Assembly (NCBI GenBank): GCA_963845205.1
Contig: CAWJRC010000002.1
Location: forward strand, 216,825 to 280,824
Reading direction: 5' to 3'
DNA: 64,000 nt
Origin: an uncultured archaeon
GTDB taxonomy: Archaea; Nanobdellota; Nanobdellia; Pacearchaeales; GW2011-AR1
Both the position numbers and the translations under genes were made by a program. Of the stretch, positions 27,314 through 46,686 are shown one piece after another. Position 1 is the stretch's first letter, and the number at the start of each line of letters is the position of its first letter. Below the pieces are notes generated by a model. The model was not told where the DNA came from and ran no database searches. It worked only from the letters and a program-made list of their open reading frames with translations.

Positions 27314-27362
27314 AATGGGATTGAAAACCCAACCCGAGATAGTTTTGCTCATATATGGAGGA

Positions 27363-27757: not shown

Positions 27758-27760
27758 GAG

Positions 27761-29096: not shown

Positions 29097-30382
29097 TCTA
29101 ATAAAAATCCTCCCGCTTTTAAAATTCTTCCGAATGTTTCTGCTTTAAGTTTCAGATTTTCAGGAAAATCATTTAATCTAAAACCTGTAGACTTTATTCC
29201 TTCAACAAAGTCTTTCATTTGTTTGTTAACTAACAAAGTTTTCCCATTATATAATATGTATTTTCCTTCCTCTTCTTTTCTTGTTCCATAGAGATTTACT
29301 CTGTAGCGAATATCTTTATCCATAGAAGGAAGTTTTTTTAATGGTGTTTTTTGTTTTAGTATCTCAACCATCCTTGAGTCTTTTTTATCTATTGATTGTC
29401 CTTCTTGCAATCCTTCATATCTGCATCCCCCACCACAAGAGTTTACTTCAGCACATTCCTTGCATTCTTCAGGAACATATTTATTCTGCCTAAATAAAAC
29501 TAATCTGTCCCAAATGTCACTAAATGGTTCTTTAAACACATTCCCTTCGATGAATGGAGAATGCCCACAGGTTCTTATATCCCCGTTATAAGAAATTTGA
29601 ATTGTCCCTCTACCCGCTCCGCAACTTCTTTTGAATATTTGATCTTGTCTTAAATCTTCGGGCAGAGCACAATAAGGAATTACTTCCAAGGCATTTACTT
29701 TTATTCCAAAATCTTTTTTTAATTTTACTAAATCTCTTAAAACATTTGCCATTTCTTCATTGCTTAACTGATATCCTGAGTCTCTTCTAAATGCAGGTTT
29801 TAATGTTGGAGTTGTTGCAAAAGAATCAATACCAAAAGTTTCAACAAGAAATTTTCCTTGTGAATAGACTGAATCCTTATTGAGTTTATGAACAACCATA
29901 TTAATTGTTGGCTTAAATCCTTCTTGAATAAGAATTTCTAAATTTCCTAAAACTTTTTTTAAATTATCTTTCCCCGTAATTTGCTTAAATTTTTTACTTT
30001 GAAAATATGGCAGGGAAATTAAAAAACCCATATCTGAATTTGCATTTTTTAATTGTAAAATCTTTTCCTTACTTGCTAAGACAAGATTTGTATTCATACT
30101 GCAAGGAGCCTTTTTTTCATATAATCTTCTAGCAATTTCTATTGATGCAGGCATATTCATTAAAGGTTCTCCTCCTGTTATCACTATATCAAATGGTTTT
30201 ATCTTATCAAAAACTATATTCATTAATTCTCTTGCTGTCTCTGAAGACATTTTTTTATTAACTGGATTGTCTTCTCTCCAATAATTATAACAATAGAAAC
30301 ATCTGTGATTACAGTCTTCAGTTACTTCAATCTGAGCATTTAATGGGTATCTCAATCCTGTATTTTTATTGTAATCATCCAT
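29093..30382 (-). CDS. radical SAM enzyme with SPASM-type auxiliary cluster domain and C-terminal PqqD/RRE-like extension
   Basis: CNHRCFYC (CxxxCxxC), GGEPLMN, CGAGRGTIQISYNGDIRTCGHS, CKECAEVNSCGGGCRYEG (SPASM pattern). The last 90 aa or so (YILYNGKTLLVNKQMKDFVEGIKSTGFRLNDF...ILKAGGFL) resemble a peptide-recognition element. Confidence 0.8.
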   Translation of the reverse strand: MDDYNKNTGLRYPLNAQIEVTEDCNHRCFYCYNYWREDNPVNKKMSSETARELMNIVFDKIKPFDIVITGGEPLMNMPASIEIARRLYEKKAPCSMNTNLVLASKEKILQLKNANSDMGFLISLPYFQSKKFKQITGKDNLKKVLGNLEILIQEGFKPTINMVVHKLNKDSVYSQGKFLVETFGIDSFATTPTLKPAFRRDSGYQLSNEEMANVLRDLVKLKKDFGIKVNALEVIPYCALPEDLRQDQIFKRSCGAGRGTIQISYNGDIRTCGHSPFIEGNVFKEPFSDIWDRLVLFRQNKYVPEECKECAEVNSCGGGCRYEGLQEGQSIDKKDSRMVEILKQKTPLKKLPSMDKDIRYRVNLYGTRKEEEGKYILYNGKTLLVNKQMKDFVEGIKSTGFRLNDFPENLKLKAETFGRILKAGGFLLE

Positions 30383-31042: not shown

Positions 31043-31115
31043 AGCCCCATAGTACAGCGGTCAAGTATATCGCCCTCTGGAGGCGGTGACCCAGGTTCGA
31101 ATCCTGGTGGGGCTA
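31043..31115 (+). tRNA. tRNA-Gln (anticodon CUG)
   Basis: 73-nt hand fold: A1-U72 acceptor AGCCCCA/TGGGGCT (A1-U72 is typical of archaeal tRNA-Gln), anticodon arm TCGCC-CTCTGGA-GGCGG, T arm CCAGG-TTCGAAT-CCTGG. Confidence 0.85.
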
Positions 31116-31117
31116 TA
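31101..31117. repeat. attL core (ATCCTGGTGGGGCTATA) in the tRNA-Gln 3' end
   Basis: 17/17 identity with 55797-55813, direct orientation. Confidence 0.85.
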
Positions 31118-31202
31118 GATTATTCTGTCTCAGTTTGCAGGAACATTTTGGATACTTTTTGAGGTATAAAATAACTTATAGATTCTTTACCAAGAAAAAA
31201 TA

Positions 31203-32426
31203 ATGACTGAAGAAACAAGAAGGTTGCAGAATCCGGAAAAATATTATAAAGCCTTAGAGAAACTGAGAACAGATAAAACTTATTTATTAATTTCCAAAAA
31301 TAAGGAATTGATACTGCAATTTTTGCAGGATGCTGAAATCGGCAGAACAATATTGAAGGGACAGAAAAGAAAAATCAAACCAGGAAGGCTGCAACGCATG
31401 CTTGGACTATTGCTGAAGATGGATAATGAATGGTTCAAGAAACCTTTTAATGAAGTCTCTGAAGAAGATATGAGTCATTTTATTCTTAACCTTGAAAGAG
31501 GGATAATCAAATCTTCAAAAGGAGAACCTTATACAGGAGAGACACAATCAACAATAAAAAAATTTATCAGGAAATATTACAAATACCTGCTTGGAGAAAA
31601 AGAGAATTATCCGAAGCTAGTTCAGTTTATTGATACAAGCACAAGAATGCTTGAGATAAAGAGCCTGAGCAAGCAGGAGAATGATAAGTTGATTGAAAAC
31701 TCTTTTAAATTAATTTACAGATTTATTTTTGCAGTGCTTTATGACAGCGGAGCAAGAATTGAAGAGTTTTACAATATCAAGAAAAGTGATTTGAGCAATG
31801 AAAATGGAATCTACAAAATAAGAATCAGGATATCAAAGACAAATCCAAGAACAATAAACCTGCCACTTTATCCCAAGATAATTGAAGCATACTTAGAATC
31901 CAATAATTTTAAAGAAGATGATTTTTTATGCACAATTAATTATGGAACTTTAAGAAAATACATGAACCGTGTGGGAAAACAATTCCTCGGAAGGACTATT
32001 TCTCCACATACATTCAGACATGGATCTGCAACCTATTATGCAAATTATCTCAACAGGTATCAGCTATCCTATCGATATGGTTGGAGTGCTTCATCAAAGA
32101 TGCCAGATAGATACATAGATATGAATGGACTAATAGATGACGAAACAGTAACAAAGATTGCAGGAGAAAATTTTATCAAGACTGATAATGAAAATAAAGA
32201 ACTGAAAACAAAATTGGATGTAATTAGTTCTACAATGGCAGAATTATTAAAAAAGCAACAGGATATGGAGAGTCAGTTAGAAATAAGAAAATTGGAAGGA
32301 GAAATATTAACAGAGATGAATAATTTGCAAGTTGGGAATTCTGATGCAGCGTTAATTACATTTTTGAAAGAAAGAAAAGATGTAGTTAGCTCTCTTAAAC
32401 AAATTCTGAACTTAATTGAAAAATAG
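31203..32426 (+). CDS. int: tyrosine recombinase / integrase
   Basis: SGARIEEFYNIKKSDL (Arg I), HTFRHGSATYY (HxxR), GWSASSKMPDRYI (Trp/Tyr nucleophile region). Adjacent to attL. Confidence 0.85.
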   Translation: MTEETRRLQNPEKYYKALEKLRTDKTYLLISKNKELILQFLQDAEIGRTILKGQKRKIKPGRLQRMLGLLLKMDNEWFKKPFNEVSEEDMSHFILNLERGIIKSSKGEPYTGETQSTIKKFIRKYYKYLLGEKENYPKLVQFIDTSTRMLEIKSLSKQENDKLIENSFKLIYRFIFAVLYDSGARIEEFYNIKKSDLSNENGIYKIRIRISKTNPRTINLPLYPKIIEAYLESNNFKEDDFLCTINYGTLRKYMNRVGKQFLGRTISPHTFRHGSATYYANYLNRYQLSYRYGWSASSKMPDRYIDMNGLIDDETVTKIAGENFIKTDNENKELKTKLDVISSTMAELLKKQQDMESQLEIRKLEGEILTEMNNLQVGNSDAALITFLKERKDVVSSLKQILNLIEK

Positions 32427-32478
32427 ATACTTTTGACTTGGTAAGTTTCTATATGTTCTTGTATCTTAGAAATAATTA

Positions 32479-32616
32479 ATGGAGACATTTAACTTTCGAT
32501 TAGAGAAAGACATTCGAGATAAGCTGGACTTAATAGCCAGAAAATACCGACGGAGCAGAGCTGATGTTATACGATTAATGATTGAAGAGGAGGCTGTTAA
32601 AGATGAAGAGAAGTGA
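32479..32616 (+). CDS. ribbon-helix-helix (CopG/Arc-like) 45-aa protein
   Basis: Hand translation: METFNFRLEKDIRDKLDLIARKYRRSRADVIRLMIEEEAVKDEEK (beta strand plus two helices). Below the ORF-track cutoff. Confidence 0.55.
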   Translation: METFNFRLEKDIRDKLDLIARKYRRSRADVIRLMIEEEAVKDEEK

Positions 32617-32675
32617 ACTTAATCCGTTGATCCAGCGACTTCTTGATTTAACAAATAAATACTTGGAGATGCAAG

Positions 32676-32858
32676 ATGGAGCAAGAAGAAGCGAAGACAT
32701 ATCTCAAAAAGAAAGTTAGGCTAGTTCTAGATAATACTTATAGATTTACAGGAGAAGTAATAGAAATTACTCCTGATACTTTTTTGATTAATGATAAATT
32801 TGACAAGCAAGTTTCTCTTGCACTAAAGAATATAGTTAGCTGTGAGGTATTAGAATGA
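32676..32858 (+). CDS. hypothetical small protein
   Basis: 60 aa. 4-nt overlap with the downstream P-loop gene. Confidence 0.4.
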   Translation: MEQEEAKTYLKKKVRLVLDNTYRFTGEVIEITPDTFLINDKFDKQVSLALKNIVSCEVLE

Positions 32859-34498
32859 TATTTCCTTTGGACCCAGAAAGAAGTAAAGTCATGAGTGCTT
32901 ATATTTTTGATGAGTCTAAAGTCCTTAAAAAGAAAGTTTTTACTCAATTAAAATTAGATGATAATACTTTTGCCTATGGCATCTTATTGCCGAAAGAAAG
33001 AGAGCTTAAAGATAAAAAAGGAAATGTCGTCGGGAGAGAACAAGTTTGGTCTCCTGTATTAATAGATTCTGACAGAAATATTATAGAAGCAACAAAAGAA
33101 ATTGAATCAACATATAAAATTAAATTTGAATCAATCCCAGAATATTTTCCCCTTAGGTGGTCCCTTGAATCTATTAAAGGATATTTGGAAGGAGATGATA
33201 AAATCCCAGAATTAGAACCTCTAGAACTTTTCAATAAAATCAAAAATAAATATGAAGATAATTGTTTTTTCAAAGAACCAATATGGTATAAAATAAATTC
33301 TCTGTGGGATATTGGGACTTATTTTTTTGAGATATTTGATAATTATCCTATAAAAGAAGAAAGGGGATTACCAGGAACTGGAAAAACTAAAAGTATGAAA
33401 GTAAGTAAAAATATTTCTTTTAATGCTACAGATATAATGATAAATCCTAGTGAAGCAACACTTTTTAGAGAAACAAATGATAAGAGACCAACAAAGTTTA
33501 TAGATGAAGCAGAAAAATTATTTACTTTTAAAAAAGGTCAGATGGAATCGGATAATCGTGTTGAATTAATAAATGGTTCTTATTCTAAAGGATCGACTGT
33601 CCCGAGAATAGAAAAAGTTGGGAATAGATTTATCTGCGTTTACTATCATGTTTATTCTCCTACACGAATTGGCTCAATAAATGGACTCTTTGGAGCAACA
33701 GAATCCAGGACAATCACACAAGTTCATACCAGAAGTTTAGACAATGATCCTCGAGGAGAAAAAGAGCCACAAGACAATGATATTGAATTTAGAATTTTAA
33801 GAGATTATCTTTATCTATTCGGATTAAAATACTGGAAATTAGTTGAAGAATCTTATAGGGATAATTCTTTATATGAAAATCTTAAACTAAAGAAAAGAGA
33901 TTTACAAATTTGGAGACCTCTGCTTGCATTGGCTAAAGTTGCCAGTGATGAATGGTTTGAAGAAGTTGCAACTTTTGCTGAGAAATTGTCATTGCAACGA
34001 AAAGAGGATTTTTTGTCGGAGGAATCATGGGATTATAGAATTTTAGCCATTATCAAGGAAATGATTGAATCAGGAATTGAAATCATCAGACCTAAGATCA
34101 TTAAGGATAGATACGCACAGAAATATGTACAAGAAACAGAAAGGCCACTACATGAGAAAACAATAACTACAAGGTTGGATCATTTGGGGTTCAAAGAATT
34201 AAGACAAACTAAAGATAGGATTGGTGTGTCATATAAAATAAATAAAGAGAATTTTGAAATTATAGCAATTCCTATCTGTCCCGATTTATCATCGAATTCA
34301 TCACAATCATCACAATTCTTTGTTGATAATAAAAATTCTGTGACGAATGAAGAAAAAAATATGATGAATGGTGACAAATATGAAATTGTAAAAATAAATA
34401 GTCATGACGAATTGACGAAAAAAGATGAATATGACGAAAATCCGCAAGTTAATAATATAGAATTGAAAGGAGGTGATAAAAATGGTAATAACTCTTAA
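32855..34498 (+). CDS. P-loop NTPase, replication-helicase-like protein of mobile elements
   Basis: Walker A GLPGTGKTKS and Walker B KFIDEAE. LQIWRPLLALAKVASDEWF resembles the W-x-PLLAIA motif of DUF3631-type helicase-associated domains (from memory). No primase motif recognised. Confidence 0.55.
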   Translation: MIFPLDPERSKVMSAYIFDESKVLKKKVFTQLKLDDNTFAYGILLPKERELKDKKGNVVGREQVWSPVLIDSDRNIIEATKEIESTYKIKFESIPEYFPLRWSLESIKGYLEGDDKIPELEPLELFNKIKNKYEDNCFFKEPIWYKINSLWDIGTYFFEIFDNYPIKEERGLPGTGKTKSMKVSKNISFNATDIMINPSEATLFRETNDKRPTKFIDEAEKLFTFKKGQMESDNRVELINGSYSKGSTVPRIEKVGNRFICVYYHVYSPTRIGSINGLFGATESRTITQVHTRSLDNDPRGEKEPQDNDIEFRILRDYLYLFGLKYWKLVEESYRDNSLYENLKLKKRDLQIWRPLLALAKVASDEWFEEVATFAEKLSLQRKEDFLSEESWDYRILAIIKEMIESGIEIIRPKIIKDRYAQKYVQETERPLHEKTITTRLDHLGFKELRQTKDRIGVSYKINKENFEIIAIPICPDLSSNSSQSSQFFVDNKNSVTNEEKNMMNGDKYEIVKINSHDELTKKDEYDENPQVNNIELKGGDKNGNNS

Positions 34499-34886
34499 GC
34501 CAACAGAAGAACAGATTGCATATGCAATTAATTTGATGGAGGATTTAACCGAAGATAATATAGAAAATAATTCAGAAGAATACCAAAGAATAACTGCTTT
34601 ATCCGATGAGAAGTTGCTTGAAGAATTTCGTTATTGGAGACGTATATACTCTGGTCTTTGTCCAATAAATATTTGGGCATATGAAGGTGTAGTAGCACAC
34701 TTGATTGGTCGAGAAATAAGTAAAAGAGATTTATGGAAACAGGCGGAAGCATTGGCTAATATAAAAAATATATCTTGCAAAGAATGCCCTCTGGCTAGTG
34801 GTCAAGAAGACAGAGAAAATCCCATAGACTGCCACCCCACAGTCGGCTGTATTGCCTGGGTTGATAATGTGCCATTAAAGGAATAA
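34473..34886 (+). CDS. hypothetical protein (Cys-containing C-terminus)
   Basis: 137-aa ORF overlapping the end of the P-loop gene; CKECP...CHPTVGC. Confidence 0.4.
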   Translation: MIKMVITLKPTEEQIAYAINLMEDLTEDNIENNSEEYQRITALSDEKLLEEFRYWRRIYSGLCPINIWAYEGVVAHLIGREISKRDLWKQAEALANIKNISCKECPLASGQEDRENPIDCHPTVGCIAWVDNVPLKE

Positions 34887-34956
34887 GAGCCAAATTTTAT
34901 TTTTATTTTTTTAAATTTTTTTATATGCAATTAGAATGAGGCAAGGAAGGAAAGAA

Positions 34957-34980
34957 AAAGGTGCCAACGTTGGCACCTTT
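34957..34980. repeat. perfect 24-bp palindrome AAAGGTGCCAACGTTGGCACCTTT
   Basis: Read directly. Lies in the 114-bp gap between two element operons and is GC-rich relative to its surroundings. Confidence 0.8.
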
Positions 34981-35000
34981 AAAGGAAAAACAAGAGAAAA

Positions 35001-35267
35001 ATGCCAAAAAAATTAAATGAAAAAATGCAGGAAGAATTTCTAAACCTATTTGGGAATAAAGACCATTACTATGATATAAGGAGATCCTGCAAGGAAGCAA
35101 AGATCGGTAAATCAACCCTTTACAGATGGATGCAGAATCCGGAATTCAAGAAAGAAATAAAGAATATCAAAACGAGGAGAAGAAAAGATCCTTATTATCA
35201 CTTAAAGAGTTTTCATAACATTAGGGCTATAATGCGAATTCTAAAAATGTCTGGAAGAGGATATTAA
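35001..35267 (+). CDS. HTH DNA-binding protein
   Basis: SCKEAKIGKSTLYRWMQNPEFKKEI, the HTH pattern common in mobile-element regulators and terminase-small-like proteins. Confidence 0.5.
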   Translation: MPKKLNEKMQEEFLNLFGNKDHYYDIRRSCKEAKIGKSTLYRWMQNPEFKKEIKNIKTRRRKDPYYHLKSFHNIRAIMRILKMSGRGY

Positions 35268-35268
35268 A

Positions 35269-35505
35269 ATGTTAACACCATCAGATAGGAAAAATATAGA
35301 AAATTTCGAGAATCTTAAATCAAATCATCAGAGAGTCTTTAAGCACAGGCTCAGGATGAAATGCCTCTCTGCAATAAAAGACATTCGATATGTTCTTTCA
35401 AATTGTATCAAACTTGACATAAAGCCAGACAGGTTTATTGACATAAATGAATTAGTAGACTTGCTTGAGGATTACGATCATGCTTGTTTGTTACAGAATA
35501 TGTAA
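35269..35505 (+). CDS. hypothetical protein
   Basis: 78-aa ORF, 1 nt after the preceding stop. Confidence 0.4.
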   Translation: MLTPSDRKNIENFENLKSNHQRVFKHRLRMKCLSAIKDIRYVLSNCIKLDIKPDRFIDINELVDLLEDYDHACLLQNM

Positions 35506-35590
35506 ATATTTTAAAATTGCATATATAAAATCATAAAAATCCGGGAGACTTTCATTTTTGAATTTGCAAAAAGTGTCCCAATAAAAAATA

Positions 35591-36292
35591 ATGGAAGAAA
35601 CACAAAGTCAAAACACAAAAGTCGAGTCTACAGCACCAAACAGAGATAATACTGATTTTACATTAAAACGAGCAGATCCGTTGCCGGAGATAAATAATTA
35701 TCTTGGAGCAGTATTCAATCTGAGCCAGTTCAGGGTATTTTATCCAACAGGTGCAGAATCAGAAGAATACTGGCAGGAAAGAAACCAACTTGAGGAAATT
35801 AAAACTTATAATGAAATAGTCAATGGACTTGAATTGGATCTGAGAAATTTTGGGATGGAAATAACTTATGCAGCAAGGGCAATCATAAATGATATAGCCT
35901 TGAACATGATGCTCATTCAAAGAATAAAGGCCCAAATGCTTTACAAAAACCCTGTGAGAGACAAAGAAGTATTAAAACCAAGCGAGACTATTTCAAGACA
36001 ACAACAGTATGAGACTAAAAAGAAAAATATCTACACAATTTATGAGAAAGAATATCTGAGAGAGGCTGAAATTCATCCTGCTATCAAATTATTGCACCAG
36101 TTTGAAAAACAAATTCATCAAGGACTTAAAGATTTGGGATTACTTCCTTCCCAGACTATCGAGAGGCAGAAACTGACAATTGTAAAAAAATTAAGGCAGC
36201 AATGCGAAAATGTGTCTGCTGAACTTTCCATCAAAAAAGAAATTATAAGAAATAAAGAAGAGAGAAAAATATCTCAAGAACAAATTAATTGA
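35591..36292 (+). CDS. hypothetical helical protein
   Basis: 233-aa ORF, no motif. Confidence 0.45.
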   Translation: MEETQSQNTKVESTAPNRDNTDFTLKRADPLPEINNYLGAVFNLSQFRVFYPTGAESEEYWQERNQLEEIKTYNEIVNGLELDLRNFGMEITYAARAIINDIALNMMLIQRIKAQMLYKNPVRDKEVLKPSETISRQQQYETKKKNIYTIYEKEYLREAEIHPAIKLLHQFEKQIHQGLKDLGLLPSQTIERQKLTIVKKLRQQCENVSAELSIKKEIIRNKEERKISQEQIN

Positions 36293-36328: not shown

Positions 36329-37801
36329 TCAAGAAGTTGGAAGACCATACTTCTGAGAAATAGCTTGCCATTGATAATATTGACTTTCAGATAAATATCC
36401 ATTATTTTGGTCCCCAATATTATTCAAATTTTCAAGTGTTATTGCATCATTGTATTCTTGAATTACAGAATCAAAAGAATTTCCATCTGCAATTGTTATT
36501 ATAGAATAATCATTAGATAATTTTTGAGAACAGGCAGTTGAAGGTGCCCCTATTACTGGTATGCAAGTAATATCCCCACTGAGAGGATAATTTCCACTGC
36601 TATCTGTAATTATTGAAGGTATAGTAGTCTCTATAAAACAATATCCTGTTCCTCCTAAACTATATTGAGTAGGACATTTTATTCCTACAGTCTCATGATT
36701 TTCAGCAGGATAATCAAATATCACGGCTCCATAACCCAAATCTTTTAACATTAATGCAAGAAGTTCAGATTTCTCACCGCAAACTCCCAAGTCAGTATAC
36801 AAAACTTGATATGGATATTTTGAAGTTAAGTCTGAACCTCCTCCATAAGGTATATTCTGTACAAGTGAAACAGCTATTCTAACTTGGTCATCTGCATTAT
36901 TAGTGATATTCTGAATGTCCGATACCAGTGGAGAAATAAGTTCTTGTTGGTCTTCTTGGCTTAAATCCCTTGTTATAAAATCGTTTGTTGTGGGGGTAGA
37001 TTCACCTTCATAATAAGAAATAGATTTATCCAAAGAGGCAAGATAATCATTTAATCCCCCATATACTTCATAATTTATGCTGCCTTTCTGTCCATTTAAA
37101 ACATAATTAAAAGTAATTTCTTTACCATTTGTTGCATATTGAGAAATACAAGTATCTCCTTGTGATATTTTTCCCGTCGGACATCCACAATAATTAGCAT
37201 TTTCAACTAACAAACCATTAGAACAATATAAAGGCAAAGTGTTTGAACATTCACTATAATCTGTGCCGTCAGAACAATGTTTTATTTTTTCACAATTATT
37301 TCCATTTATTTTATAATCGTAAGGACAGCGACAATGACTTGCATTATTCACAAGAGTTCCATTGGAACAATAAAGAGGCTGAGCATTAGAACACTCACTA
37401 TAAAATGTACCATCAGAACAATTTAATGGGCTGAATATATGCATTCCTCCACTTGCAAAAAAGATAATTGCAATAACAGAAATTGAAAATAATATTATGA
37501 AAAAAAAGTTAATATGAAATTTTCTTATTTTTGGAGTTTCACTTTTCTCTTCTTTATTTGATATATCCTTGTGATTTATTATTTTCTTCTCTTGACTAAA
37601 TTGTTTTGGTTTGTAGAATTCTTGTTTTATTTCTTTCTTCCATCTTTCTTGGTTCCCTTTTTTATGTTTCTCTAATCCTTCACAATTATGGTCTTCAGGC
37701 AGTCTATGTTTACCGCAAAAATGTTTATTACAATATCTGCATTTAAATGAAAAATCTTTTATTTTTCTTTTGCATTTATAACAAATATTTTCATAGCTCA
37801 T
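36329..37801 (-). CDS. AN1-type Zn-finger / TM / duplicated Cys-rich module / transglutaminase-like protein
   Basis: CYKCKRKIKDFSFKCRYCNKHFCGKHRLPEDHNC fits the AN1 consensus exactly. One TM segment. Two CSDGT.YSECSN..PLYCSNG.LV.NA..C.CP repeats. GVCGEKSELLALMLKDLGY...NHETVGI is a Cys/His transglutaminase-core-like region. Confidence 0.6.
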   Translation of the reverse strand: MSYENICYKCKRKIKDFSFKCRYCNKHFCGKHRLPEDHNCEGLEKHKKGNQERWKKEIKQEFYKPKQFSQEKKIINHKDISNKEEKSETPKIRKFHINFFFIILFSISVIAIIFFASGGMHIFSPLNCSDGTFYSECSNAQPLYCSNGTLVNNASHCRCPYDYKINGNNCEKIKHCSDGTDYSECSNTLPLYCSNGLLVENANYCGCPTGKISQGDTCISQYATNGKEITFNYVLNGQKGSINYEVYGGLNDYLASLDKSISYYEGESTPTTNDFITRDLSQEDQQELISPLVSDIQNITNNADDQVRIAVSLVQNIPYGGGSDLTSKYPYQVLYTDLGVCGEKSELLALMLKDLGYGAVIFDYPAENHETVGIKCPTQYSLGGTGYCFIETTIPSIITDSSGNYPLSGDITCIPVIGAPSTACSQKLSNDYSIITIADGNSFDSVIQEYNDAITLENLNNIGDQNNGYLSESQYYQWQAISQKYGLPTS

Positions 37802-38198
37802 TATTTTTCTTTATCTCCATATAGCAATCAATTATCGCCTTTGTTGTTCTACTTATGTTCACATTTGAATTAGATGTCCAATAAGCAATATGACTTACAT
37901 CATGATAATTTGGTTTTGGATGGCCATTTGCTTTTATTAAAAAAACTTTATGCAGATTTCTTATTTTTCTTCTTTTTCCATCATGATTATATTTGGGTTC
38001 ATTATGTGTAAATAAATATTTGCAATAATATGCTTTAAGTCTAGTCTCTTCCTTTAATTCCCTTATAGCAGCTCTACGTCTACTTTCCCATTTTTCAGCT
38101 CCTCCTCCAGGCAACAAGAATAATTTATTTCTGCTTGCAGTTACAAGAATACCTTTTGGTGTTTCAACAATTGCAGTTCCTCTTCTTCTAGTTATCAT
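37791..38198 (-). CDS. NUDIX hydrolase (small, 135 aa)
   Basis: Nudix box GGGAEKWESRRRAAIRELKEETRL. 11-nt overlaps with both neighbours. Confidence 0.7.
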   Translation of the reverse strand: MITRRRGTAIVETPKGILVTASRNKLFLLPGGGAEKWESRRRAAIRELKEETRLKAYYCKYLFTHNEPKYNHDGKRRKIRNLHKVFLIKANGHPKPNYHDVSHIAYWTSNSNVNISRTTKAIIDCYMEIKKNNEL

Positions 38199-38817
38199 TT
38201 TTCATTAAACTTACAGTTTTCCTCCAAATATCTTTGTCTAAGGCCTCTTTTCTGTTCAACATTCTTTTTTGAATAAAGTCGTATTCACAAAGAATTCTCT
38301 GATCTTTGATAAGTGTAGCTCTTAAAAGAGAATGTTTAAATTTTGGCTGTTTAATATTTTTTACATAATTTTTAATCTGTAAAAATTTCTTTTGGTCTAT
38401 TTTCATAGCTAGGGTAATATGGGGGGAATATCTTTTTTTTATTTTCAGTAATCTTGACAAATAAAAAATATCAGTCTTGTTTAAATTACTATAAGCCTTT
38501 ATTTTTTTTAATAATTCATTTCTGAATTTTAACAGTTCTTTGCTTGGATAAATTTTAATATAAACTACTCGGGAATGTTCAAACGTGCCATATCCTTCTA
38601 TTGAGAAATCAACCAAAGAATGTTTAATGCAAATTTTTTCAAAATCAGATACTAACCTTCTTTCATGTTTGGTATAAAATGGTGCAATTAAAGTAATATG
38701 GGGTATCGATCTATTTTTTGAAAATACTTGAAATTTTTTATTAATTTCCAAAATCAGTTCTTTTATCTCGCCCTTTGCCCTTCCTCGAAATCTGAACTCA
38801 ATAAAGTATTTTGTCAT
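38188..38817 (-). CDS. 2H phosphoesterase superfamily protein (LigT / cyclic phosphodiesterase-like)
   Basis: Two H-x-T-x motifs, PHITLIAPF and PHITLAMK, about 90 aa apart. Confidence 0.7.
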   Translation of the reverse strand: MTKYFIEFRFRGRAKGEIKELILEINKKFQVFSKNRSIPHITLIAPFYTKHERRLVSDFEKICIKHSLVDFSIEGYGTFEHSRVVYIKIYPSKELLKFRNELLKKIKAYSNLNKTDIFYLSRLLKIKKRYSPHITLAMKIDQKKFLQIKNYVKNIKQPKFKHSLLRATLIKDQRILCEYDFIQKRMLNRKEALDKDIWRKTVSLMKNDN

Positions 38818-39380
38818 TTTCTTAAATGCCCCTCTAATTCTTTGATTATCTCATCTTGTGTTTTATTTCCATCAATTATTATATCTGCTTGCTTTCTTTG
38901 GATCTCTTCATATTTTTTTGATTCAGGTATGACAACATTCCTAGCATAATCAAGTTCTTTAATATCATTAAACCTCTTTAATCTTCTATAAATTAAGTTC
39001 AAATCAGAAACATCAACCCAAATTTTCTTATCAAATAATTTATTTAATTCTTTGTTAACAAAAAGAAGATAGCCTTCAACAATAATCACCTTATGAGGTT
39101 TGACTTCTCTGTCAAAATTTTCTGTCCATCTATGTGTTGGGATAAAAGCTTTCTTACCTTCTTTTAACAAAGTAATAGCCTCAATAATTTTATCAAATCT
39201 TATTGATTCTGGTCTTTCCCAATTTTCTGCTTTGATTTTAAAGAATTTATCTTGGTTGATATGTAAAAGATCACCTTTATATTTTTTTTCAAGCTCTTTA
39301 ATAACTGTAGATTTTCCCGAACAACTTCTACCGCCAACCCCTATAATTAGGGGTTTTATTTTTTTTGAGAATAATACCAT
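38814..39380 (-). CDS. P-loop nucleoside kinase, nicotinamide-riboside-kinase/uridine-kinase-like
   Basis: IIGVGGRSCSGKSTV (P-loop), HINQDKFFK, VIIVEGYLLF, IYRRLKR and IIIDGNKTQDEI. The order and spacing resemble human NRK1 as I recall it. Confidence 0.6.
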   Translation of the reverse strand: MVLFSKKIKPLIIGVGGRSCSGKSTVIKELEKKYKGDLLHINQDKFFKIKAENWERPESIRFDKIIEAITLLKEGKKAFIPTHRWTENFDREVKPHKVIIVEGYLLFVNKELNKLFDKKIWVDVSDLNLIYRRLKRFNDIKELDYARNVVIPESKKYEEIQRKQADIIIDGNKTQDEIIKELEGHLRK

Positions 39381-39387
39381 TTTGATC

Positions 39388-39981
39388 TCAATCCTTAAAC
39401 AATTCTTTTGGCTTATAACTTTCCTGTGCTTCTTGGTTTATTTTATTTCCTAATGTCAAATAATGCATAAGCTTGAAACCATGAACCTTAGCAACAATAT
39501 TTCTTGGAAATCTTTGAACTCTTTCATTATAATCCTGAGCTATTTTATTGTAATGTCTTCTGAATTCTTCCAATTTATGTTCAATCCTTGAAATATTCCC
39601 AGACCCCATAATTTGCTGGTATAATTTATCAGCTTTTACTTTGGGATACTTTTCAAAGACTGCTTGAATTTTGAGAAAATTATTCTCCATTTCAACTTTG
39701 TTATTAAGGGGAGCATCCTTAGACCATCTACTTCTTGCTTCTATAGTATCTTTTATAGTCTTATACTCATGTATACTATACTTCTTAGCTACTTGGGCTA
39801 ATGAAGGAAGCATATCAATTCTTCTTTGCATTATTACATCAATGTCTGCAAAAGCTCTTTCTGCTCTTGTTCTCCAGTAGACAAATTTGTTGTAAACTTT
39901 TACCCATCCTTTACTTAAGAAAAATAAAGCTGTTGCTCCAACAGCAATTCCTCCAATCCATATTATTGTTGATATTTCCAT
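39388..39981 (-). CDS. LemA-family membrane protein
   Basis: N-terminal TM segment, then YNKFV..R.....AFADIDVIMQRRIDMLPSL...AR, the LemA pattern. Confidence 0.7.
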   Translation of the reverse strand: MEISTIIWIGGIAVGATALFFLSKGWVKVYNKFVYWRTRAERAFADIDVIMQRRIDMLPSLAQVAKKYSIHEYKTIKDTIEARSRWSKDAPLNNKVEMENNFLKIQAVFEKYPKVKADKLYQQIMGSGNISRIEHKLEEFRRHYNKIAQDYNERVQRFPRNIVAKVHGFKLMHYLTLGNKINQEAQESYKPKELFKD

Positions 39982-39986
39982 TTTTG

Positions 39987-40157
39987 TTATTCCTCAAAGT
40001 AATCTTTATTTTTTAAGTTCTTTGGCTTGATTTCTGCTTTGAAATATTTTACCATTTTTTTAATAGCTTCTTGTTTTGTATTTAAATTATTAACCAATTT
40101 ATAGATCTCCACAATTTTGTCTTCTTCCTCGCTTAAATCTATTTGTATCTTTGTCAT
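39987..40157 (-). CDS. 56-aa RHH-like small protein, first gene of the LemA-kinase-2H-NUDIX operon
   Basis: Hand translation: MTKIQIDLSEEEDKIVEIYKLVNNLNTKQEAIKKMVKYFKAEIKPKNLKNKDYFEE. Its stop is 5 nt before the LemA start. Below the ORF-track cutoff. Confidence 0.45.
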   Translation of the reverse strand: MTKIQIDLSEEEDKIVEIYKLVNNLNTKQEAIKKMVKYFKAEIKPKNLKNKDYFEE

Positions 40158-40262
40158 TTTGTATCATTATATAACATGGTAATATAAGGCATTATTTAAA
40201 TCTTTCGGTTATTACTTTTTTATGTAAAATTAACAAAATGATTTAATAGAAAAATTTATTGA

Positions 40263-41675: not shown

Positions 41676-42503
41676 TTATTTTTTAGATAGTTTTTTCTTA
41701 AAATATAAAATAGCTGAAGATATTATGATTATCCCCAATATTGTTAAAAAAGAATTAAGCAGATTAATTTTAAGTCCAATGAGATTTAAGTAGAAAATAG
41801 CAAGAGGAACAATTGCAATTGATAGGGCAAATGATAAAGCAATTCTTTCAATCCAATCGATACTTCCTTTTTCTTTTTCATTGTCTTCAAAAGATCTTGT
41901 TTTTGGAAAGAAGATAAAACTGATAATAAAACCTGGAATAAAAAGAACATAAACAGAACCAAAAACTATTCTTAATGCATCCAATAAAGATAAATTAGCA
42001 AAAATTGTTATTGTTATTGAAACCAAACTTAAAATGAAAATTATTGCTAGAGCTCCTAGAAAATATAATAGAGATTTATTTTTGTAAACGTGTTTTATTT
42101 TCCTTACTTCACTTTCTTTTTCATCTTCTAAAACCAGAATAGATAATAAAATAATTAAAATTCCTGCTATAATTGAGATTAACCAAGAAAGCCAGCCTAA
42201 TTCTTCTGTCTTAAACTTTATTATAATAAATCCCAAAATTCCAAGGGCAGATACAAACCCATAATCCCACCATTTTGATTTTTTTTCTTTCTTTTCTTGA
42301 TGTTCAGAAAATATGTCTAATATTCCTGCAATAATGACTGCTAGGAGGAGATAATTAATATTAAAGTACAAAGATACTGTTGTAGGCCATATCTGCTCTA
42401 CCAGAAGCAAAATAAGATATGTTATCAGTAAGGCTTGAAATAAATGATTAATTATCTCCGCTATATGCCCTTTAAATTGAAGTTTTGGTATTTTAAATTT
42501 CAT
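41676..42503 (-). CDS. polytopic membrane protein (DUF1616-like, tentative)
   Basis: About 8 hydrophobic segments. 4-nt overlap with the upstream gene. Confidence 0.45.
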   Translation of the reverse strand: MKFKIPKLQFKGHIAEIINHLFQALLITYLILLLVEQIWPTTVSLYFNINYLLLAVIIAGILDIFSEHQEKKEKKSKWWDYGFVSALGILGFIIIKFKTEELGWLSWLISIIAGILIILLSILVLEDEKESEVRKIKHVYKNKSLLYFLGALAIIFILSLVSITITIFANLSLLDALRIVFGSVYVLFIPGFIISFIFFPKTRSFEDNEKEKGSIDWIERIALSFALSIAIVPLAIFYLNLIGLKINLLNSFLTILGIIIISSAILYFKKKLSKK

Positions 42504-44131
42504 TTTTCAAAAAACCCTTTTTTATGTACTGTTATATTTATCCAGTCTATTGGAATGTAATCGTTTTTAGTATTATTTTTATTTTGATTTAAGTGACCAA
42601 TATCTAATAACATGTTTAATTTGTTATCATTAATATATAGATTATTTTCTTCAATATTTAAAGATAGGGAAGCAATTCTCCAACCATTTTCTTCTTTTGG
42701 AGAGGTATATTCAACCAAAACATAATCTGCATTTTGTTCCAAATAATTTAAATTACTTTTATATTGCACATTTTTTCCTTCAAAAGGATTGAACCAAGAG
42801 TCTTCTGTAAAAGAAAAAAATTCTGGTCCAGTTATTGTTATATCATTTTTTTCTGATTTAATTTCATAGAAAATATCTGAAGGAGTTATACTTAAACCAG
42901 ACTTTGCATTTCTTTCAGTTATATTCAATTCTTTATTATTAACATTGATTGTTTGTAAAGAGTAATCATGAGATGTTTGAGCTGTAAGTTGTGTTGGTTT
43001 TTGAACTTTAAAATAAACTTTTGAAGATTCTTCAAAATTATTAAAATACTCCCCACTTTGAGCTAAGAAGATAGATCCGCTCAGCACAATCTTATTTTGG
43101 TTTAATCTGATCTTAGTAATTAACATATCGCCATTATTTTTTAATTCTAATTTGTAAATTCCTTCTTTTAATTCAGCTGTTTGAAGTTCTCCTTTTTGAT
43201 CATCAGTATTATTTTTATCTGTCTTTATTCCTGTTTCTCCATCATCTTTTATTGTACTAAAATCAATTAATTTATTATTTGAATCATATAATGAGATATT
43301 AAGTATGTCTGACCCGTTATACCAATTTAAATCTCTTTTCCAAACTTCAACATCAAGATAACCTTTTATATAAACATAAAATGTTTGAGTACCTCTTAAT
43401 GCAGTATTGATGGTAAATTCTTGTGGTTGATAATCTTGTATTTTAAGTTCGGGAATTGTAACATTTAGGGGGGTTGCTAATCTCACTAAAGGAGGATTTG
43501 TATAAAAATCATCTATTGTGTAATCTTTAGAATAATTATTTATTTTGAATAAGGTTAAATTATCTTTTTGAGAATAAGGATATTTTTTTATTAATTCTTC
43601 TATTGTTTTATCATAAATTGTAAAATATTGGTAAGACCATTCTTCTTGATTTTTTGCTCCAATTAAAAAATTAGAATTATCCGGGAAATTATCTTTAAAC
43701 TTAATTGATAAATTTATTTCATCTGTTCCCTTAACAGTTGGTATATCAAAATAAACTAACTGATCTGTTAAATTTCTATAAGTTATTCCCAAATCATTTA
43801 TTTTATCTGAGATTCTTCCTGCAGGAGAAAGATAGTTATCATTATTGCTTCCAATATCATAAAAATAATTAAATTTCTGAGGAATAATATTTGAATATAC
43901 TACAAATCCAATTAATACCAAAGGAATCAAAACAATAATCATAATTTTAAAAATTTTAATATGCTTTGGTTCAACAACAAAATTTTCTACTTTTTTAATT
44001 TCTCTTTCAATATTTTTTTCTATTTTCTTTAATTCTGGTTCTGTTTTGTTATTCTGTCTTTTTTTTCTTTTCATTTCTAAATAAGCATCTAATCTTTTTT
44101 CATAACTAACTCTTGGTTTCTTTTCTGTCAT
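42500..44131 (-). CDS. N-terminally anchored large extracellular protein
   Basis: Basic N-terminus, one TM segment, Asn/Tyr-rich ectodomain with many N-x-S/T sequons. Confidence 0.45.
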   Translation of the reverse strand: MTEKKPRVSYEKRLDAYLEMKRKKRQNNKTEPELKKIEKNIEREIKKVENFVVEPKHIKIFKIMIIVLIPLVLIGFVVYSNIIPQKFNYFYDIGSNNDNYLSPAGRISDKINDLGITYRNLTDQLVYFDIPTVKGTDEINLSIKFKDNFPDNSNFLIGAKNQEEWSYQYFTIYDKTIEELIKKYPYSQKDNLTLFKINNYSKDYTIDDFYTNPPLVRLATPLNVTIPELKIQDYQPQEFTINTALRGTQTFYVYIKGYLDVEVWKRDLNWYNGSDILNISLYDSNNKLIDFSTIKDDGETGIKTDKNNTDDQKGELQTAELKEGIYKLELKNNGDMLITKIRLNQNKIVLSGSIFLAQSGEYFNNFEESSKVYFKVQKPTQLTAQTSHDYSLQTINVNNKELNITERNAKSGLSITPSDIFYEIKSEKNDITITGPEFFSFTEDSWFNPFEGKNVQYKSNLNYLEQNADYVLVEYTSPKEENGWRIASLSLNIEENNLYINDNKLNMLLDIGHLNQNKNNTKNDYIPIDWINITVHKKGFFEK

Positions 44132-44132
44132 T

Positions 44133-45752
44133 TTAACAAGTATATTTGTAAATTTTATTATTTAAGTTTTGATAATAAACTTCAAAACATTCGGGGAATT
44201 TTTCCAGATTATCATTTTGTTTTTCTCCAATAAAAATGTATAAAGGTTTTTCATAAGCATCCATAAACTGCTTGATTTGATTTATATCATCTGTAGTCCA
44301 AAAGACAATCCATTCTTCCTGATTCTGTTTATTGTAATCAAATAATCCGGGAGCAATTGTTTTTCTGTTAGAATAACCCAAAAGCCAAGGAGAATATATT
44401 GAAGAAGTTGCCATAACAAAAGAATTATTTTCTGTATTTTGAATATATTGAATTGTTTGAAGCTCATTTTCATTTATCAAAGGTGTTGTGTTTCTTGCTT
44501 CATTTAATATAACAAATCCTGCCGAGAATAGCATAATAATCAAAAGTATAATTCCAAATTTCTTTTTGTTCTGAATTATTGTTGAAAACCCAATGGAAGA
44601 TAAAATAATCAATCCGATGTCTAAATGAATTATAAATCTATTAAAAAAGAAAAATTGAAAATAAACAATCATAGCAGTAACTAATGTCCAAAAGAAAATC
44701 ATATTAAATTGTTTTTTTCTGAATAATGCAAAGAATCCAAGAATTGCAAGAGGGAGATAAGCTAATACTGAAAATTGATAAGTGAAGAAATTAATAAAAG
44801 TTCCTGGAGATTCTCCTGTCTGAAGAAATCCTTGAATTACCGGCTCGAACATATCTGTTATTGCAGGAATAAATTTCCCAAGATAAAATAATCCTGCAAT
44901 TGCAACAATCAATAACCCATAACCAATATTCTTTCCTAATTGTTTAATGTTATATTTTTTATTTTTATAAGGAGAAATAAGAACATAGAAAAGATAACTT
45001 AATCCGAAAATATAAAATGTAGGACGATGCACAGCACCCAATAGTCCTCCCAGAATTATAAACATCCAGATAAAATTTTTATTTTTTTCTGATTTTTTAA
45101 GAAAGTAAATTGAAAATAAAGCCAAAGAAAGTCCAATTATATTTCTATAATACATATAAGTAAAAGTAAAAAACTGAATTAATGAAACAGAATATATCAT
45201 GAGGGCGATTATTGCCGTTTGTTTATTGAAAAATTCCTTTGTTACAAAATAAATTGCTAGTCCAAGCAGGATACAAAACCCAATTAAAAGATAAGTCAGG
45301 ATAAATTGAGATGAAAATAATAATTTAACAGGCTCCATCATGTAAAGAAATAAAGGTTCCATTGTTGGACCGGTTATTAACCAATTGTCCATATTTTTTA
45401 ATCCGCTTTCTATAGCATATTTGTAAATCCCAGCATCATAACCAAGAGGGATTGAATTGTTAATATAAGGAATTGTCCTGAATAGAATAATAAAAATTAT
45501 TGCCAAGGCAAACAGAGAATAATGAAGCTTTTTTGATTCTAAAGATTTGTTAAGTTTTGAAGATTTATCAGAATCTGACTTGTTAGAATTCAGAATGAAG
45601 ATTCCCAAAACAGCAATGATTACGGCAAATATCTGAAATTGCAGAGAATATTTCCAGAACAAGTTTAATGAAATTAACAAAACTAAAATTGCATAAACTG
45701 CCAATAGCTGATAAAAACTGCTTTGGAATACCTGCTTAATTTTTTTTAACAT
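44133..45752 (-). CDS. GT-C-fold membrane glycosyltransferase-like protein (ArnT/PMT-like)
   Basis: 539 aa with 12 or more TM segments plus a soluble C-terminal domain. Assigned by topology only. Confidence 0.45.
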   Translation of the reverse strand: MLKKIKQVFQSSFYQLLAVYAILVLLISLNLFWKYSLQFQIFAVIIAVLGIFILNSNKSDSDKSSKLNKSLESKKLHYSLFALAIIFIILFRTIPYINNSIPLGYDAGIYKYAIESGLKNMDNWLITGPTMEPLFLYMMEPVKLLFSSQFILTYLLIGFCILLGLAIYFVTKEFFNKQTAIIALMIYSVSLIQFFTFTYMYYRNIIGLSLALFSIYFLKKSEKNKNFIWMFIILGGLLGAVHRPTFYIFGLSYLFYVLISPYKNKKYNIKQLGKNIGYGLLIVAIAGLFYLGKFIPAITDMFEPVIQGFLQTGESPGTFINFFTYQFSVLAYLPLAILGFFALFRKKQFNMIFFWTLVTAMIVYFQFFFFNRFIIHLDIGLIILSSIGFSTIIQNKKKFGIILLIIMLFSAGFVILNEARNTTPLINENELQTIQYIQNTENNSFVMATSSIYSPWLLGYSNRKTIAPGLFDYNKQNQEEWIVFWTTDDINQIKQFMDAYEKPLYIFIGEKQNDNLEKFPECFEVYYQNLNNKIYKYTC

Positions 45753-46686
45753 TTTCTCCCCCTTTTGGTTTATGTTTTAACAAGATAATTGAAAAGATTG
45801 GACCGAGAGTAAACATTGTAATCATCTGAACAATTCTCCCCAAAATTGCTACTGACAAAGATTGGGCAGGAGTTATCCCCAATATCAAAGCAGAGAAAAC
45901 AGCAACAGTTTCTGCAACTCCAAGGTTACCTGGAGTTATCTGCACTAATAACAACAAAGAACTGATTGATGCCAAGAATAATGCCTTGATAAAAGAAATA
46001 TGTATTCCGAAGACATAATATTCAATTATCAGTGAAGCAGAACTTATCAACAAAGCACAGATAGTTACTATTAAGCATGTTACAATTGCTTTCTTGTTAT
46101 TTCTTATTATATGCCAGCCATTTATTACTGTTACAAATTTGTTTATGATTTTATTTTTTGATTCGTGAAATTTTGGAGAGAAAATAATTATCCCCAGCAA
46201 TGGAAGAAAAACACCAAGGAAAACAAGCAAGATAGTCAAGTTAAAAATGTCATAAATTTTCCAGATTGCAATTAAGCTTCCCAAGCCGAATAAACTGTTT
46301 ATGAAAAAAGTCATTACATACATTCCTGCAAGAACAGAAAAAAATTTTGCAAAAGAGAAAAGATGTTTTTTCTTAAGATATGTTGCTCTCACAAACATTC
46401 CACCGTAAGCAGGAGTTATCAAATTATAAAAACCAGTAACTATTGAAAGCATGTAAACTTCGATATGCTTTAATTTTGCACCAAGAGGTTCAAGAAGAGT
46501 TTTTGTCTGAAGTCCAATAAAAAAATAACTTAATAAGAATAAAGCAATAAGGGGAATTAGCCATAATGGATTAATTAATTCAATCTGCTTGAAGTCAGAT
46601 ATATGATTGTAAATATAATAAACAAAAAATCCTGCGATGAGGATTAATACAAAGATACTGATGATGGTTTTAAGTTTGAGTTTCAT
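45736..46686 (-). CDS. flippase-like membrane protein (UPF0104 / MprF-TM-like)
   Basis: 316 aa, about 8 TM segments, GNLGVAE-type motif (TPGNLGVAETV). Confidence 0.45.
   Translation of the reverse strand: MKLKLKTIISIFVLILIAGFFVYYIYNHISDFKQIELINPLWLIPLIALFLLSYFFIGLQTKTLLEPLGAKLKHIEVYMLSIVTGFYNLITPAYGGMFVRATYLKKKHLFSFAKFFSVLAGMYVMTFFINSLFGLGSLIAIWKIYDIFNLTILLVFLGVFLPLLGIIIFSPKFHESKNKIINKFVTVINGWHIIRNNKKAIVTCLIVTICALLISSASLIIEYYVFGIHISFIKALFLASISSLLLLVQITPGNLGVAETVAVFSALILGITPAQSLSVAILGRIVQMITMFTLGPIFSIILLKHKPKGGENVKKN

Follow-up and report, generated by a model that had tools for sequence, protein, structure and literature searches.

LemA is among the most widespread prokaryotic membrane proteins without a known function, and bacteria have gene pairs of LemA and a TPM-domain phosphatase, in which the LemA gene stands beside phosphoesterase genes. 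Two other phosphoesterase families, 2H and Nudix, also occur in the networks of nicotinamide adenine dinucleotide and ADP-ribose (NAD-ADPr networks) surveyed in PMC9503650, a survey that mentions neither LemA nor a Udk/NRK-type kinase. The locus analyzed here lies in a 64,000-nucleotide (nt) stretch of the 374,879-bp contig CAWJRC010000002.1 from an uncultured archaeon of the Pacearchaeales (the window; all coordinates are positions in this whole stretch). Five packed genes, encoding a small protein of 56 amino acids (aa), LemA, a kinase, a 2H phosphoesterase and a NUDIX hydrolase, constitute an old, strongly conserved chromosomal operon of DPANN archaea that is also present in some bacteria. 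An earlier annotation made from the sequence alone (the sequence-only reading) did not know this combination with LemA as a described system, and a literature search likewise returned no account of the gene set. All parts come from known families; the new points are an operator shared across domains and the link between LemA and phosphoesterases.

All genes of the operon are on the minus strand. The open reading frame (ORF) of the 56-aa protein comes first (39987-40157), followed after 5 nt by LemA (39388-39981) and after a further 7 nt by the kinase (38814-39380). The 2H gene (38188-38817) overlaps the kinase gene by 4 nt, the NUDIX gene (37791-38198) overlaps 2H by 11 nt, and a sixth gene, for an AN1 zinc finger protein (36329-37801), overlaps NUDIX by another 11 nt. 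This packing of six genes, with gaps of 5-7 nt or overlaps of 4-11 nt, had been read exactly from the sequence, and the accompanying domain calls are all upheld by Pfam (E-values of 1.2e-29 for LemA, 1.2e-13 for PRK/Udk, 7.5e-18 for 2_5_RNA_ligase2 [PF13563], 3.8e-10 for NUDIX and 1.8e-10 for zf-AN1). The catalytic residues are kept in the kinase, the 2H enzyme and the NUDIX.

The closest homologues carry the labels Woesearchaeota, Pacearchaeota or Nanoarchaeota. A kinase-anchored sample comprised 81 loci from species-level genomes and metagenomes, with 65 distinct kinase genes, among which the order small ORF-LemA-kinase-2H-NUDIX recurs. Counting only contigs that extend far enough, LemA is found upstream of the kinase in 24 of 33 cases and the small ORF in 22 of 29, with 2H downstream in 34 of 45 and NUDIX in 28 of 38. 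This arrangement of kinase, LemA, 2H and NUDIX is far beyond chance. The small-protein family is much larger than the kinase family (1,175 versus 166 clusters in the protein collection). An unbiased sample was anchored on the small ORF, with 80 loci fetched from the 117 species-level genomes that carry it. LemA adjoins the small ORF in 75 of these 80 loci, a NUDIX/2H/metallophosphoesterase (MPE) cluster is present in 39 and the kinase in only 7. In the 58 loci with no less than 3.5 kb of downstream sequence, 2H is present in 25, NUDIX in 24, the kinase in 6 and the full set of three in 4; where the small ORF-LemA module is enzyme-less, unrelated membrane proteins come next. The complete Woesearchaeota chromosome CP060219.1 carries small ORF-LemA-NUDIX-2H. 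The invariant core of the module is the small ORF plus LemA, its usual partners are NUDIX and 2H, and the kinase is an insertion between LemA and 2H in a sub-clade that includes the window. Despite its 11-nt overlap, the AN1 gene has only a loose tie to the operon, with homologues close to the module in a few kinase-anchored loci (L037, L061, L065 and L070) and in 5 of the 80 small-ORF-anchored loci, on either side of it. The AN1 protein itself has a zf-AN1 domain, one transmembrane (TM) helix (residues 92-110), a Cys-rich extracellular region and a weak transglutaminase-like match (Transglut_core, 8.9e-4, under the Pfam cutoff).

The module also crosses the domain boundary. Several loci labeled Dehalococcoidales are truly bacterial, with a G+C content of 42-50% and flanks that are kept between genomes (MoeA, MoCF and OYE upstream and RuvA downstream in L134, L137, L138, L139 and L155). 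Their module reads small ORF-LemA-NUDIX(-MPE)-2H, with 69-80% identity to the window in the small ORF and 52-56% in LemA. Its occurrence there, with conserved flanks, implies an old transfer between archaea and bacteria followed by vertical inheritance.

The sequence-only reading had placed the operon on a mobile element. As a general property this fails: relatives without any element have the genes as conserved chromosomal ones, several of them amid core genes, a finding which that reading had itself named as counting against it. In one context, the operon stands between the gene of RNA polymerase subunit N and the S9/L13/S11/S4/S13 ribosomal operon; further contexts include tRNA synthetases, endonuclease V, RNase HII and dCTP deaminase, as well as DnaK-DnaJ-GrpE, AlaRS with archease, and MutS with V-ATPase. 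Flanks differ in nearly every genome of the kinase-anchored sample. Compared with other genomes, the window shows identities of 69-96% for the small ORF, 59-84% for LemA and 52-82% for the kinase, with other shared genes far less conserved (48% for EndoIII, 43% for another protein) and 2H, at 35-56%, diverging at an ordinary rate. Four-fold degenerate sites in conserved codons are 35-47% identical between the window and the other genomes, against about 33% expected from composition. Synonymous sites are thus saturated while the small ORF, LemA and the kinase stay at 70-95% protein identity, so that this high identity reflects long-term purifying selection; recent horizontal spread, considered as its cause, is ruled out.

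The 56-aa protein is the best conserved product of the operon (69-96% identity, bacterial copies included) and its gene is always accompanied by the operator described below. NCBI names its homologues 'DUF2683 family protein', a designation that has no match in current Pfam and whose mention in the literature yields no usable fold. None of 16 family members had a Pfam match under an E-value of 0.01 (best DUF6290 at 0.014 and VapB at 0.065), and no significant match was obtained in the PDB. The label of ribbon-helix-helix (RHH)-like that it had been given is therefore without significant Pfam or PDB support, and rests on the sequence pattern and the conserved operator; a dimeric DNA-binding protein, possibly RHH-like, would fit.

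Upstream of this ORF, on the minus strand, are a TATA box (TTTAAATA, 40193-40200), 35 nt upstream of the ATG, and an element resembling the transcription factor B recognition element (BRE; CCGAAAGA, 40201-40208). The pair is kept in 27 distinct archaeal loci, with the consensus AA.CgAAAgg TTTAtATA (BRE-like CGAAAG, TATA box TTTA[AT]ATA), and, judged by the archaeal consensus, 40193-40208 would act as the core promoter; a scan for bacterial promoters and terminators is uninformative for an archaeon. Between the TATA box and the start codon lies a candidate operator (40160-40186, minus strand), composed of three 7-nt half-sites separated by 3-nt spacers and so repeating every 10 nt (TATATTA at 40180-40186, TGTTATA at 40170-40176 and TGATACA at 40160-40166). 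In the 27 archaeal loci, this AT-rich element has the shared form TATAACA-N3-TGTTATA-N3-TGTTATA, and the best inverted-repeat arm averages 6.9 nt, compared to 4.2 nt in shuffles. In Dehalococcoidales, the operator is also found upstream of the small ORF, there after a TTGACA -35 box instead of BRE/TATA. That the operator stays with the module in both domains even as the core promoter is exchanged argues for its binding by a module-encoded protein, most obviously the 56-aa protein, which would then act as an autoregulator of the operon.

The LemA protein scores 103.5 bits against the cutoff of 26.2 of its Pfam family (PF04011). It has a single N-terminal TM helix at residues 3-21 followed by a helical domain. 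Among 35 family members, the net charge is -0.7 before the TM helix and +2.5 after it, a bias that points to an N-out/C-in topology. The helical domain is accordingly predicted to be cytoplasmic, on the same side of the membrane as the enzymes. LemA also matches phrog_1383, annotated as 'virion structural protein' (6.5e-20); this indicates that LemA homologues occur on some phages and is not taken as evidence on this locus.

The 2H enzyme has the two HxTx motifs that had been noticed in its sequence (PHITLI and PHITLA), on a duplicated fold that matches 2H structures, and among 26 homologues H133 is invariant and H40 nearly so. The family had been noted to include viral enzymes that destroy immune signaling nucleotides. 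The best profile match of the window enzyme is Bacillus subtilis YjcG (2d4g, 5.5e-10), which is also the best fold match of the structural model (predicted local distance difference test [pLDDT] score of 89.1), and the 2'-5' phosphodiesterases of the mouse hepatitis virus (MHV) ns2 and rotavirus VP3 types come far lower, at fold ranks 39-48 with E-values above 1e-3. Its closest relatives thus fall outside the viral/eukaryotic 2'-5' phosphodiesterase branch, which also holds AKAP7-like enzymes. Distant 2H relatives in methanogens are without conserved partners.

The NUDIX protein is 135 aa long and scores 40.3 bits in Pfam against a cutoff of 21.1. Its box had rightly been described as almost canonical: the window sequence reads G32-x5-E38-x7-R46-E47-L48-x-E50-E51-x-R53-L54, with R in place of the penultimate G (G53R), and the family consensus is fully canonical (GX5EX7REUXEEXGU). 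Profile searches return 3f13 first (2.7e-24), followed by the diadenosine tetraphosphate (Ap4A) hydrolase 3i7u (1.1e-9) and ADP-ribose pyrophosphatases (about 5e-6), so that the closest characterized relatives are Ap4A hydrolases rather than ADP-ribose pyrophosphatases. Among known structures, 3f13 is the nearest, with Ap4A/Ap6A hydrolases next, and the protein is best described, on these comparisons, as a predicted minimal hydrolase of a 3f13-like subfamily.

A third phosphoesterase, the calcineurin-type MPE, appears in other loci. It is fused to 2H in L068 (3198-4604) and in the 2H ORF of L074, is fused to NUDIX in L134 (6783-7793) and L133 (3422-4303), and stands alone in place of 2H in L065 (10621-11169) and L153 (6726-7310). 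It has the motifs DLHLxH...RPF...GDL...GxHD...GHxHN and is weakly PdeM-like. The two kinds of fusion and the replacement of 2H by MPE point to a functional tie among the three phosphoesterase activities.

The kinase contains the motifs quoted for it from the sequence (GVGGRSCSGKST, INQDKFFK and IIVEGYLLF). It had been called NRK-like, and as a single sequence it is indeed about equally far from UCK1 (2.3e-10) and NRK1 (1.2e-8). The family profile, however, puts UCK1 first (71 bits), followed by UCK2 (66), phosphoribulokinase (PRK, 60), bacterial Udk (58) and NRK1 (51). The fold agrees: the top Foldseek matches of the AlphaFold model (pLDDT 88.8), a closed nucleoside-kinase fold that includes the UCK-type beta-hairpin, are UCK2, UCK1 and Thermus thermophilus Udk (TM-scores of 0.83-0.84; UCK2, 0.83), whereas NRK1 ranks 44th (TM-score of 0.71, root mean square deviation of 7.1 Å). 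Nor is it a plain uridine kinase, an outcome that would have spoken against the sequence-only reading. It keeps the catalytic machinery: across 18 homologues, G14-x-x-G17-RSCS-G22-K23-S24, D44 and E102 are fully or almost fully invariant, and they correspond to K33, D62 and E135 of UCK2; the catalytic Asp (UCK2 D62, here D44), the ribose-binding acid (D84, here E55) and the lid arginines R132 and R133 are retained. The residues with which UCK2 reads the pyrimidine, Y112 and H117, have H83 (H or K in the family) and N88 (N/V/E/K/I) as their counterparts and are not conserved, and the scores fall far below the udk equivalog cutoffs (81.4 bits versus 180 for NF004018; 77.6 versus 220.3 for TIGR00235). 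Together, these observations argue for a distinct subfamily of P-loop kinases with the Udk/UCK fold and with a signature of its own: GRSCSGKS, D44, W54-E55, R61, D63, W85-T86-E87, F89-D90, R132-R133 and VIPxSKxYExxQ.

An exhaustive search yielded 37 representative kinase-related proteins at E < 1e-30. In locus L014 (1717-3234), a kinase 74% identical to that of the window is fused to an ARH3-like ADP-ribosylglycohydrolase (PF03747, 7.8e-42; ARH3, 1.9e-20); no LemA, 2H or NUDIX homologue was detected in this locus. Protein P0337 combines a TIR_2 domain (6e-19), a proline-rich linker, a signature-bearing kinase and, at the C-terminus, a conserved domain (about 130 aa) without family assignment; in P0330, this kinase and C-terminal domain are joined to a different N-terminus. 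Proteins of this type could belong to a conflict system that uses this type of kinase. Kinase relatives fused to guanylate kinase, Cmk-like, dNK or tandem PRK domains were considered as support for nucleotide salvage and set aside, as they have canonical Udk residues and are missing the subfamily signature. With a Udk fold, a non-Udk pocket and occasional ARH3-like or TIR fusions, the subfamily is a worthwhile target for substrate finding.

Taken together, we propose a chromosomal, autoregulated, LemA-anchored operon whose enzymes have a housekeeping role and process breakdown products of nucleotides or ribosyl phosphates for reuse, a reading to which we give roughly an even chance. The 56-aa regulator would bind the three 7-bp half-sites over the transcription start, and LemA would serve as a membrane anchor that tethers the enzymes at the inner face of the membrane. 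There, the NUDIX would cleave nucleoside-diphosphate-X compounds, 2H (with MPE where present) would open and strip cyclic or 2'/3' phosphates, and the kinase would phosphorylate a ribonucleoside, other than simply uridine or cytidine, at its 5'-OH. Run in this order, the steps would deliver usable 5'-nucleotides in organisms unable to make nucleotides and cofactors. Many DPANN genomes are without pathways for purines, pyrimidines and vitamins (PMC6349945), and salvage fits this missing biosynthesis, the very strong constraint on the genes and the neighbors of some cassettes: a cytidylate kinase adjoins LemA-2H in L090, and an AMP/thymidine-phosphorylase-type gene adjoins the cassette in L087. 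For DPANN biology, the operon represents a strongly constrained gene set that is probably part of the scavenging metabolism of these symbionts.

Several points weigh against the salvage proposal. The substrates of the kinase, 2H and NUDIX are predicted only, and the nearest relatives, YjcG for 2H and 3f13 for NUDIX, are themselves uncharacterized. The kinase is without the base-reading residues of UCK and is missing from about 90% of modules, so a kinase-centered salvage cannot cover the whole family. Binding between LemA and the enzymes is a proposal, and the literature assigns no biochemical function to LemA. In addition, about half of the small ORF-LemA modules are enzyme-less, and the enzymes may thus be hitch-hikers on a well-regulated promoter. 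Dehalococcoidia are not generally described as nucleotide auxotrophs.

Possible, though unlikely in our estimation, is a chromosome-encoded module specific for NAD+ and ADP-ribose, either for housekeeping or for handling NAD-derived signals, in which the NUDIX would cleave ADP-ribose or NAD and the kinase would act on nicotinamide riboside or another NAD-derived ribosyl compound. This chemistry had been suggested from the sequence for a cargo of a mobile element. The element setting does not hold, and the chemistry gains some independent support from the kinase fusions: both enzymatic-domain fusions of signature-bearing kinases, ARH3-like in L014 and TIR in P0337, are related to NAD or ADP-ribose, albeit each was seen just once. 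Likewise, 2H enzymes are known to act on Appr>p, the 1'',2''-cyclic phosphate of ADP-ribose (PMC9503650), the base pocket of the kinase is not Udk-like, and the NUDIX weakly matches the Nudix part of NadM fusions. Yet by profile and fold the kinase is nearer to UCK than to NRK1, and the NUDIX profile is nearer to Ap4A/MutT-type enzymes than to ADP-ribose pyrophosphatases. Moreover, no macro domain, Tpt1/KptA, NMNAT or NAMPT was found in or beside the cassettes examined, and the kinase is missing from most modules.

The functional unit might also consist of the small regulator and LemA only, with a role in membrane homeostasis or stress, and with the downstream enzymes as unrelated users of the promoter. 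We hold this to be improbable, even though the pair occurs in 75 of 80 loci with variable genes downstream, roughly half of the modules are enzyme-less and continue with unrelated membrane proteins, and small multi-TM ORFs are often inserted after LemA. Furthermore, normal division of the minimal cell syn3A requires seven genes, one of which belongs to the LemA family (PMC9483919). A unit of two genes is at odds with the fact that the same two or three phosphoesterase families keep reappearing beside LemA in archaea as well as bacteria, with either gene order and with fusions among them; without a functional link, such recurrence is hard to account for.

The enzymes could instead normalize RNA ends for decay or repair. 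In that case, the NUDIX would leave a 5'-monophosphate on 5'-triphosphate or capped ends, 2H and MPE would convert 2',3'-cyclic phosphate to 3'-OH, the kinase would phosphorylate 5'-OH ends, and LemA might organize these steps at the membrane. Together, the four activities would cover what it takes to bring any RNA end to the 5'-P/3'-OH state; 2H and Nudix enzymes are found in RNA-repair neighborhoods (PMC9503650), the MPE is fused to 2H or NUDIX, the NUDIX weakly matches RNA pyrophosphohydrolases, and the L091 module has a different NUDIX beside RNase J. Nevertheless, we consider this doubtful: the kinase has the closed UCK-type fold with the beta-hairpin and not that of a Clp1/Pnk-type polynucleotide kinase, neither an RNA ligase (RtcB, Rnl) nor Hen1 or another repair partner is linked, and the NUDIX resembles RppH less than it does Ap4A hydrolases.

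Similarly doubtful, and the most far-reaching, is the idea that the module is a cross-domain, membrane-anchored platform for nucleotide signals that are NAD-derived or carry cyclic phosphates. LemA would sense the state of the membrane or envelope, and the enzymes would make or destroy a ribosyl-phosphate messenger, for example an ADP-ribose derivative. If true, this would be the first biochemical role for LemA, and the kinase subfamily would represent a new class acting on NAD-derived ribosides.

The genomic block that lies downstream of the operon in the window bears on a last alternative. It comprises a tRNA-Gln gene (31043-31115), a tyrosine integrase of 407 aa (31203-32426), a DUF3631 protein of 547 aa (32855-34498) and small helix-turn-helix (HTH) proteins up to 36292, and plausibly forms an integrated element about 5 kb long (31043-36292). 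An 88-aa HTH protein of the block resembles terminase small subunits (PHROGs, about 1e-6), several of its ORFs are without a function call, and a DUF3631 homologue with 28% identity also adjoins the cassette in L001/L085. The operon is located 3.9 kb from the integrase/DUF3631 block next to tRNA-Gln. No attachment-site (att) duplicate of the tRNA-Gln region was found among repeats, by a mismatch-tolerant search of both tRNA halves, or among exact words of at least 11 nt on both sides; the right end of the element is therefore undefined, and no tie between it and the operon emerges. In most loci, the integrase, DUF3631 and AN1 genes do not travel with the cassette. Integrase proximity seemed enriched in the kinase-anchored sample (an integrase homologue in just 5 of 32 loci, all within about 5.5 kb) and was dropped as a property of the module because tyrosine recombinases are found in only 6 of the 80 loci of the unbiased sample by tblastn and in 13 by clustering.

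That the operon is an anti-defense cargo, which rebuilds NAD after NADase attack or destroys cyclic or 2'-5' oligonucleotide immune signals, is very improbable and largely refuted by its distribution: apart from the nearby block in the window and the tyrosine recombinases in 13 of the 80 loci, its favorable contexts are those of L082, where an integrase is accompanied by type I restriction-modification genes, a TIR protein and Rep, of L084, with GmrSD and restriction-modification genes, and of L085, between a DUF3631 block and recombinases, whereas most loci are recombinase-free, many are embedded in core genes, the operon is under very strong purifying selection with saturated synonymous sites, and the 2H is not of the viral 2'-5' phosphodiesterase type. 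Searches of viral and defense collections agree. The kinase and 2H families had no relatives on the IMG/VR viral contigs scanned, GenBank phages returned just Udk-like proteins at 25-34% identity, and PHROGs gave no meaningful phage membership for the operon proteins. In PADLOC-DB 2.0, the matches were limited to a generic one for NUDIX (PDC-S07, 2.3e-5) and one for the P-loop (5e-4), with nothing for LemA, 2H or the small ORF. The NAD-reconstitution enzymes that define NARP1 and NARP2 (PRPP-synthetase-like Adps with Namat, or Nampt with Nmnat) were found neither among the six proteins nor in the annotated neighborhoods. A false lead is thereby removed, as the operon is not an anti-defense island.

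Some variation within the cassettes was recorded in addition. In many of them, small (62-128 aa), very hydrophobic multi-TM ORFs without family assignment separate the kinase gene from LemA or from 2H (for example, L042:3452-3817, L003:7125-7505, L017:9489-9740, L039:9757-9999 and L002:1649-1885); the window cassette has no such insert. Unannotated proteins of 215-231 aa after LemA in L091 and L093 were tested as divergent 2H or kinase proteins, and this was ruled out. The identity of the NUDIX to that of the window is independent of kinase identity (88% and 71%, respectively, in L052; 54% and 78% in L001), which suggests two NUDIX lineages or recombination inside the cassette.

Across the window, the G+C content is flat at 25-34%. 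Upstream of the operon are a membrane-anchored tRNA_anti-like protein, an ArsR-type HTH protein and a long envelope/glycosylation cluster (41676-52316, minus strand), which has the lowest G+C content of the window (25-28%) and encodes a DUF1616 membrane protein, two PMT_2/EpsG-like proteins, an LPG_synthase_TM protein and two GT4 glycosyltransferases, among further ORFs. The region 24443-30382 contains Endonuclease III and a phosphate propanoyltransferase-type (PTAC) gene with acetate kinase. It also encodes a radical SAM/SPASM protein that overlaps a 220-aa protein weakly matching BSP-peptidase; these two could be a peptide-maturation pair. Among the loci of relatives, ARAGORN called a 90-nt tRNA with anticodon UUA, which would read the UAA stop codon (L065:3583-3672), and a 97-nt tRNA with a four-base anticodon call (L009:15240-15336). 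These may be intron-containing tRNAs or a suppressor tRNA. LAGLIDADG homing-endonuclease ORFs were observed inside DPANN core operons, in a ribosomal-protein operon and between dnaK and grpE (L012:14418-15167, L084:5542-6477 and L009:11535-11825).

Compared with known systems, the operon differs from NARP1/NARP2 and the NAD-ADPr networks in having no Adps/Namat, Nampt/Nmnat, macro, KptA or sirtuin components and in its absence from the phages searched. The window 2H has YjcG as its best match by profile and fold, with both HxT motifs present, at about 18% identity, and its family adds the invariant residues R9, R166 and E178-Y179-D180 and a C-terminal helical tail; YjcG has no established substrate, and the match therefore assigns no function to 2H. 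The kinase is like NRK1/NMRK1 in size (188 versus 199 aa), P-loop, the QDxFF catalytic Asp and the IIEGxLLF motif, and aligns to it without the UCK insertion; it differs in its UCK-type beta-hairpin and in poorer profile and fold matches. With Udk/UCK (PF00485), it shares the fold, P-loop, catalytic Asp, the Mg-binding Glu of the EG motif (E102), the acid at the ribose position (E55) and the lid arginines. In contrast to these enzymes, it has no equivalents of Y112/H117 and no UCK insertion after QDxF, and it carries its own invariant signature (W54-E55, W85-T86-E87, F89-D90 and SKxYExxQ). A compact, putatively autoregulated LemA operon that is common to archaea and bacteria, with recurrent phosphoesterase partners and a precise predicted operator, gives experimental handles on LemA. 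Whereas the known LemA-TPM pairs join LemA to a TPM-domain phosphatase, here LemA stands with cytoplasmic NUDIX, 2H and MPE enzymes, with or without the kinase, behind a dedicated small regulator with a conserved operator in front.

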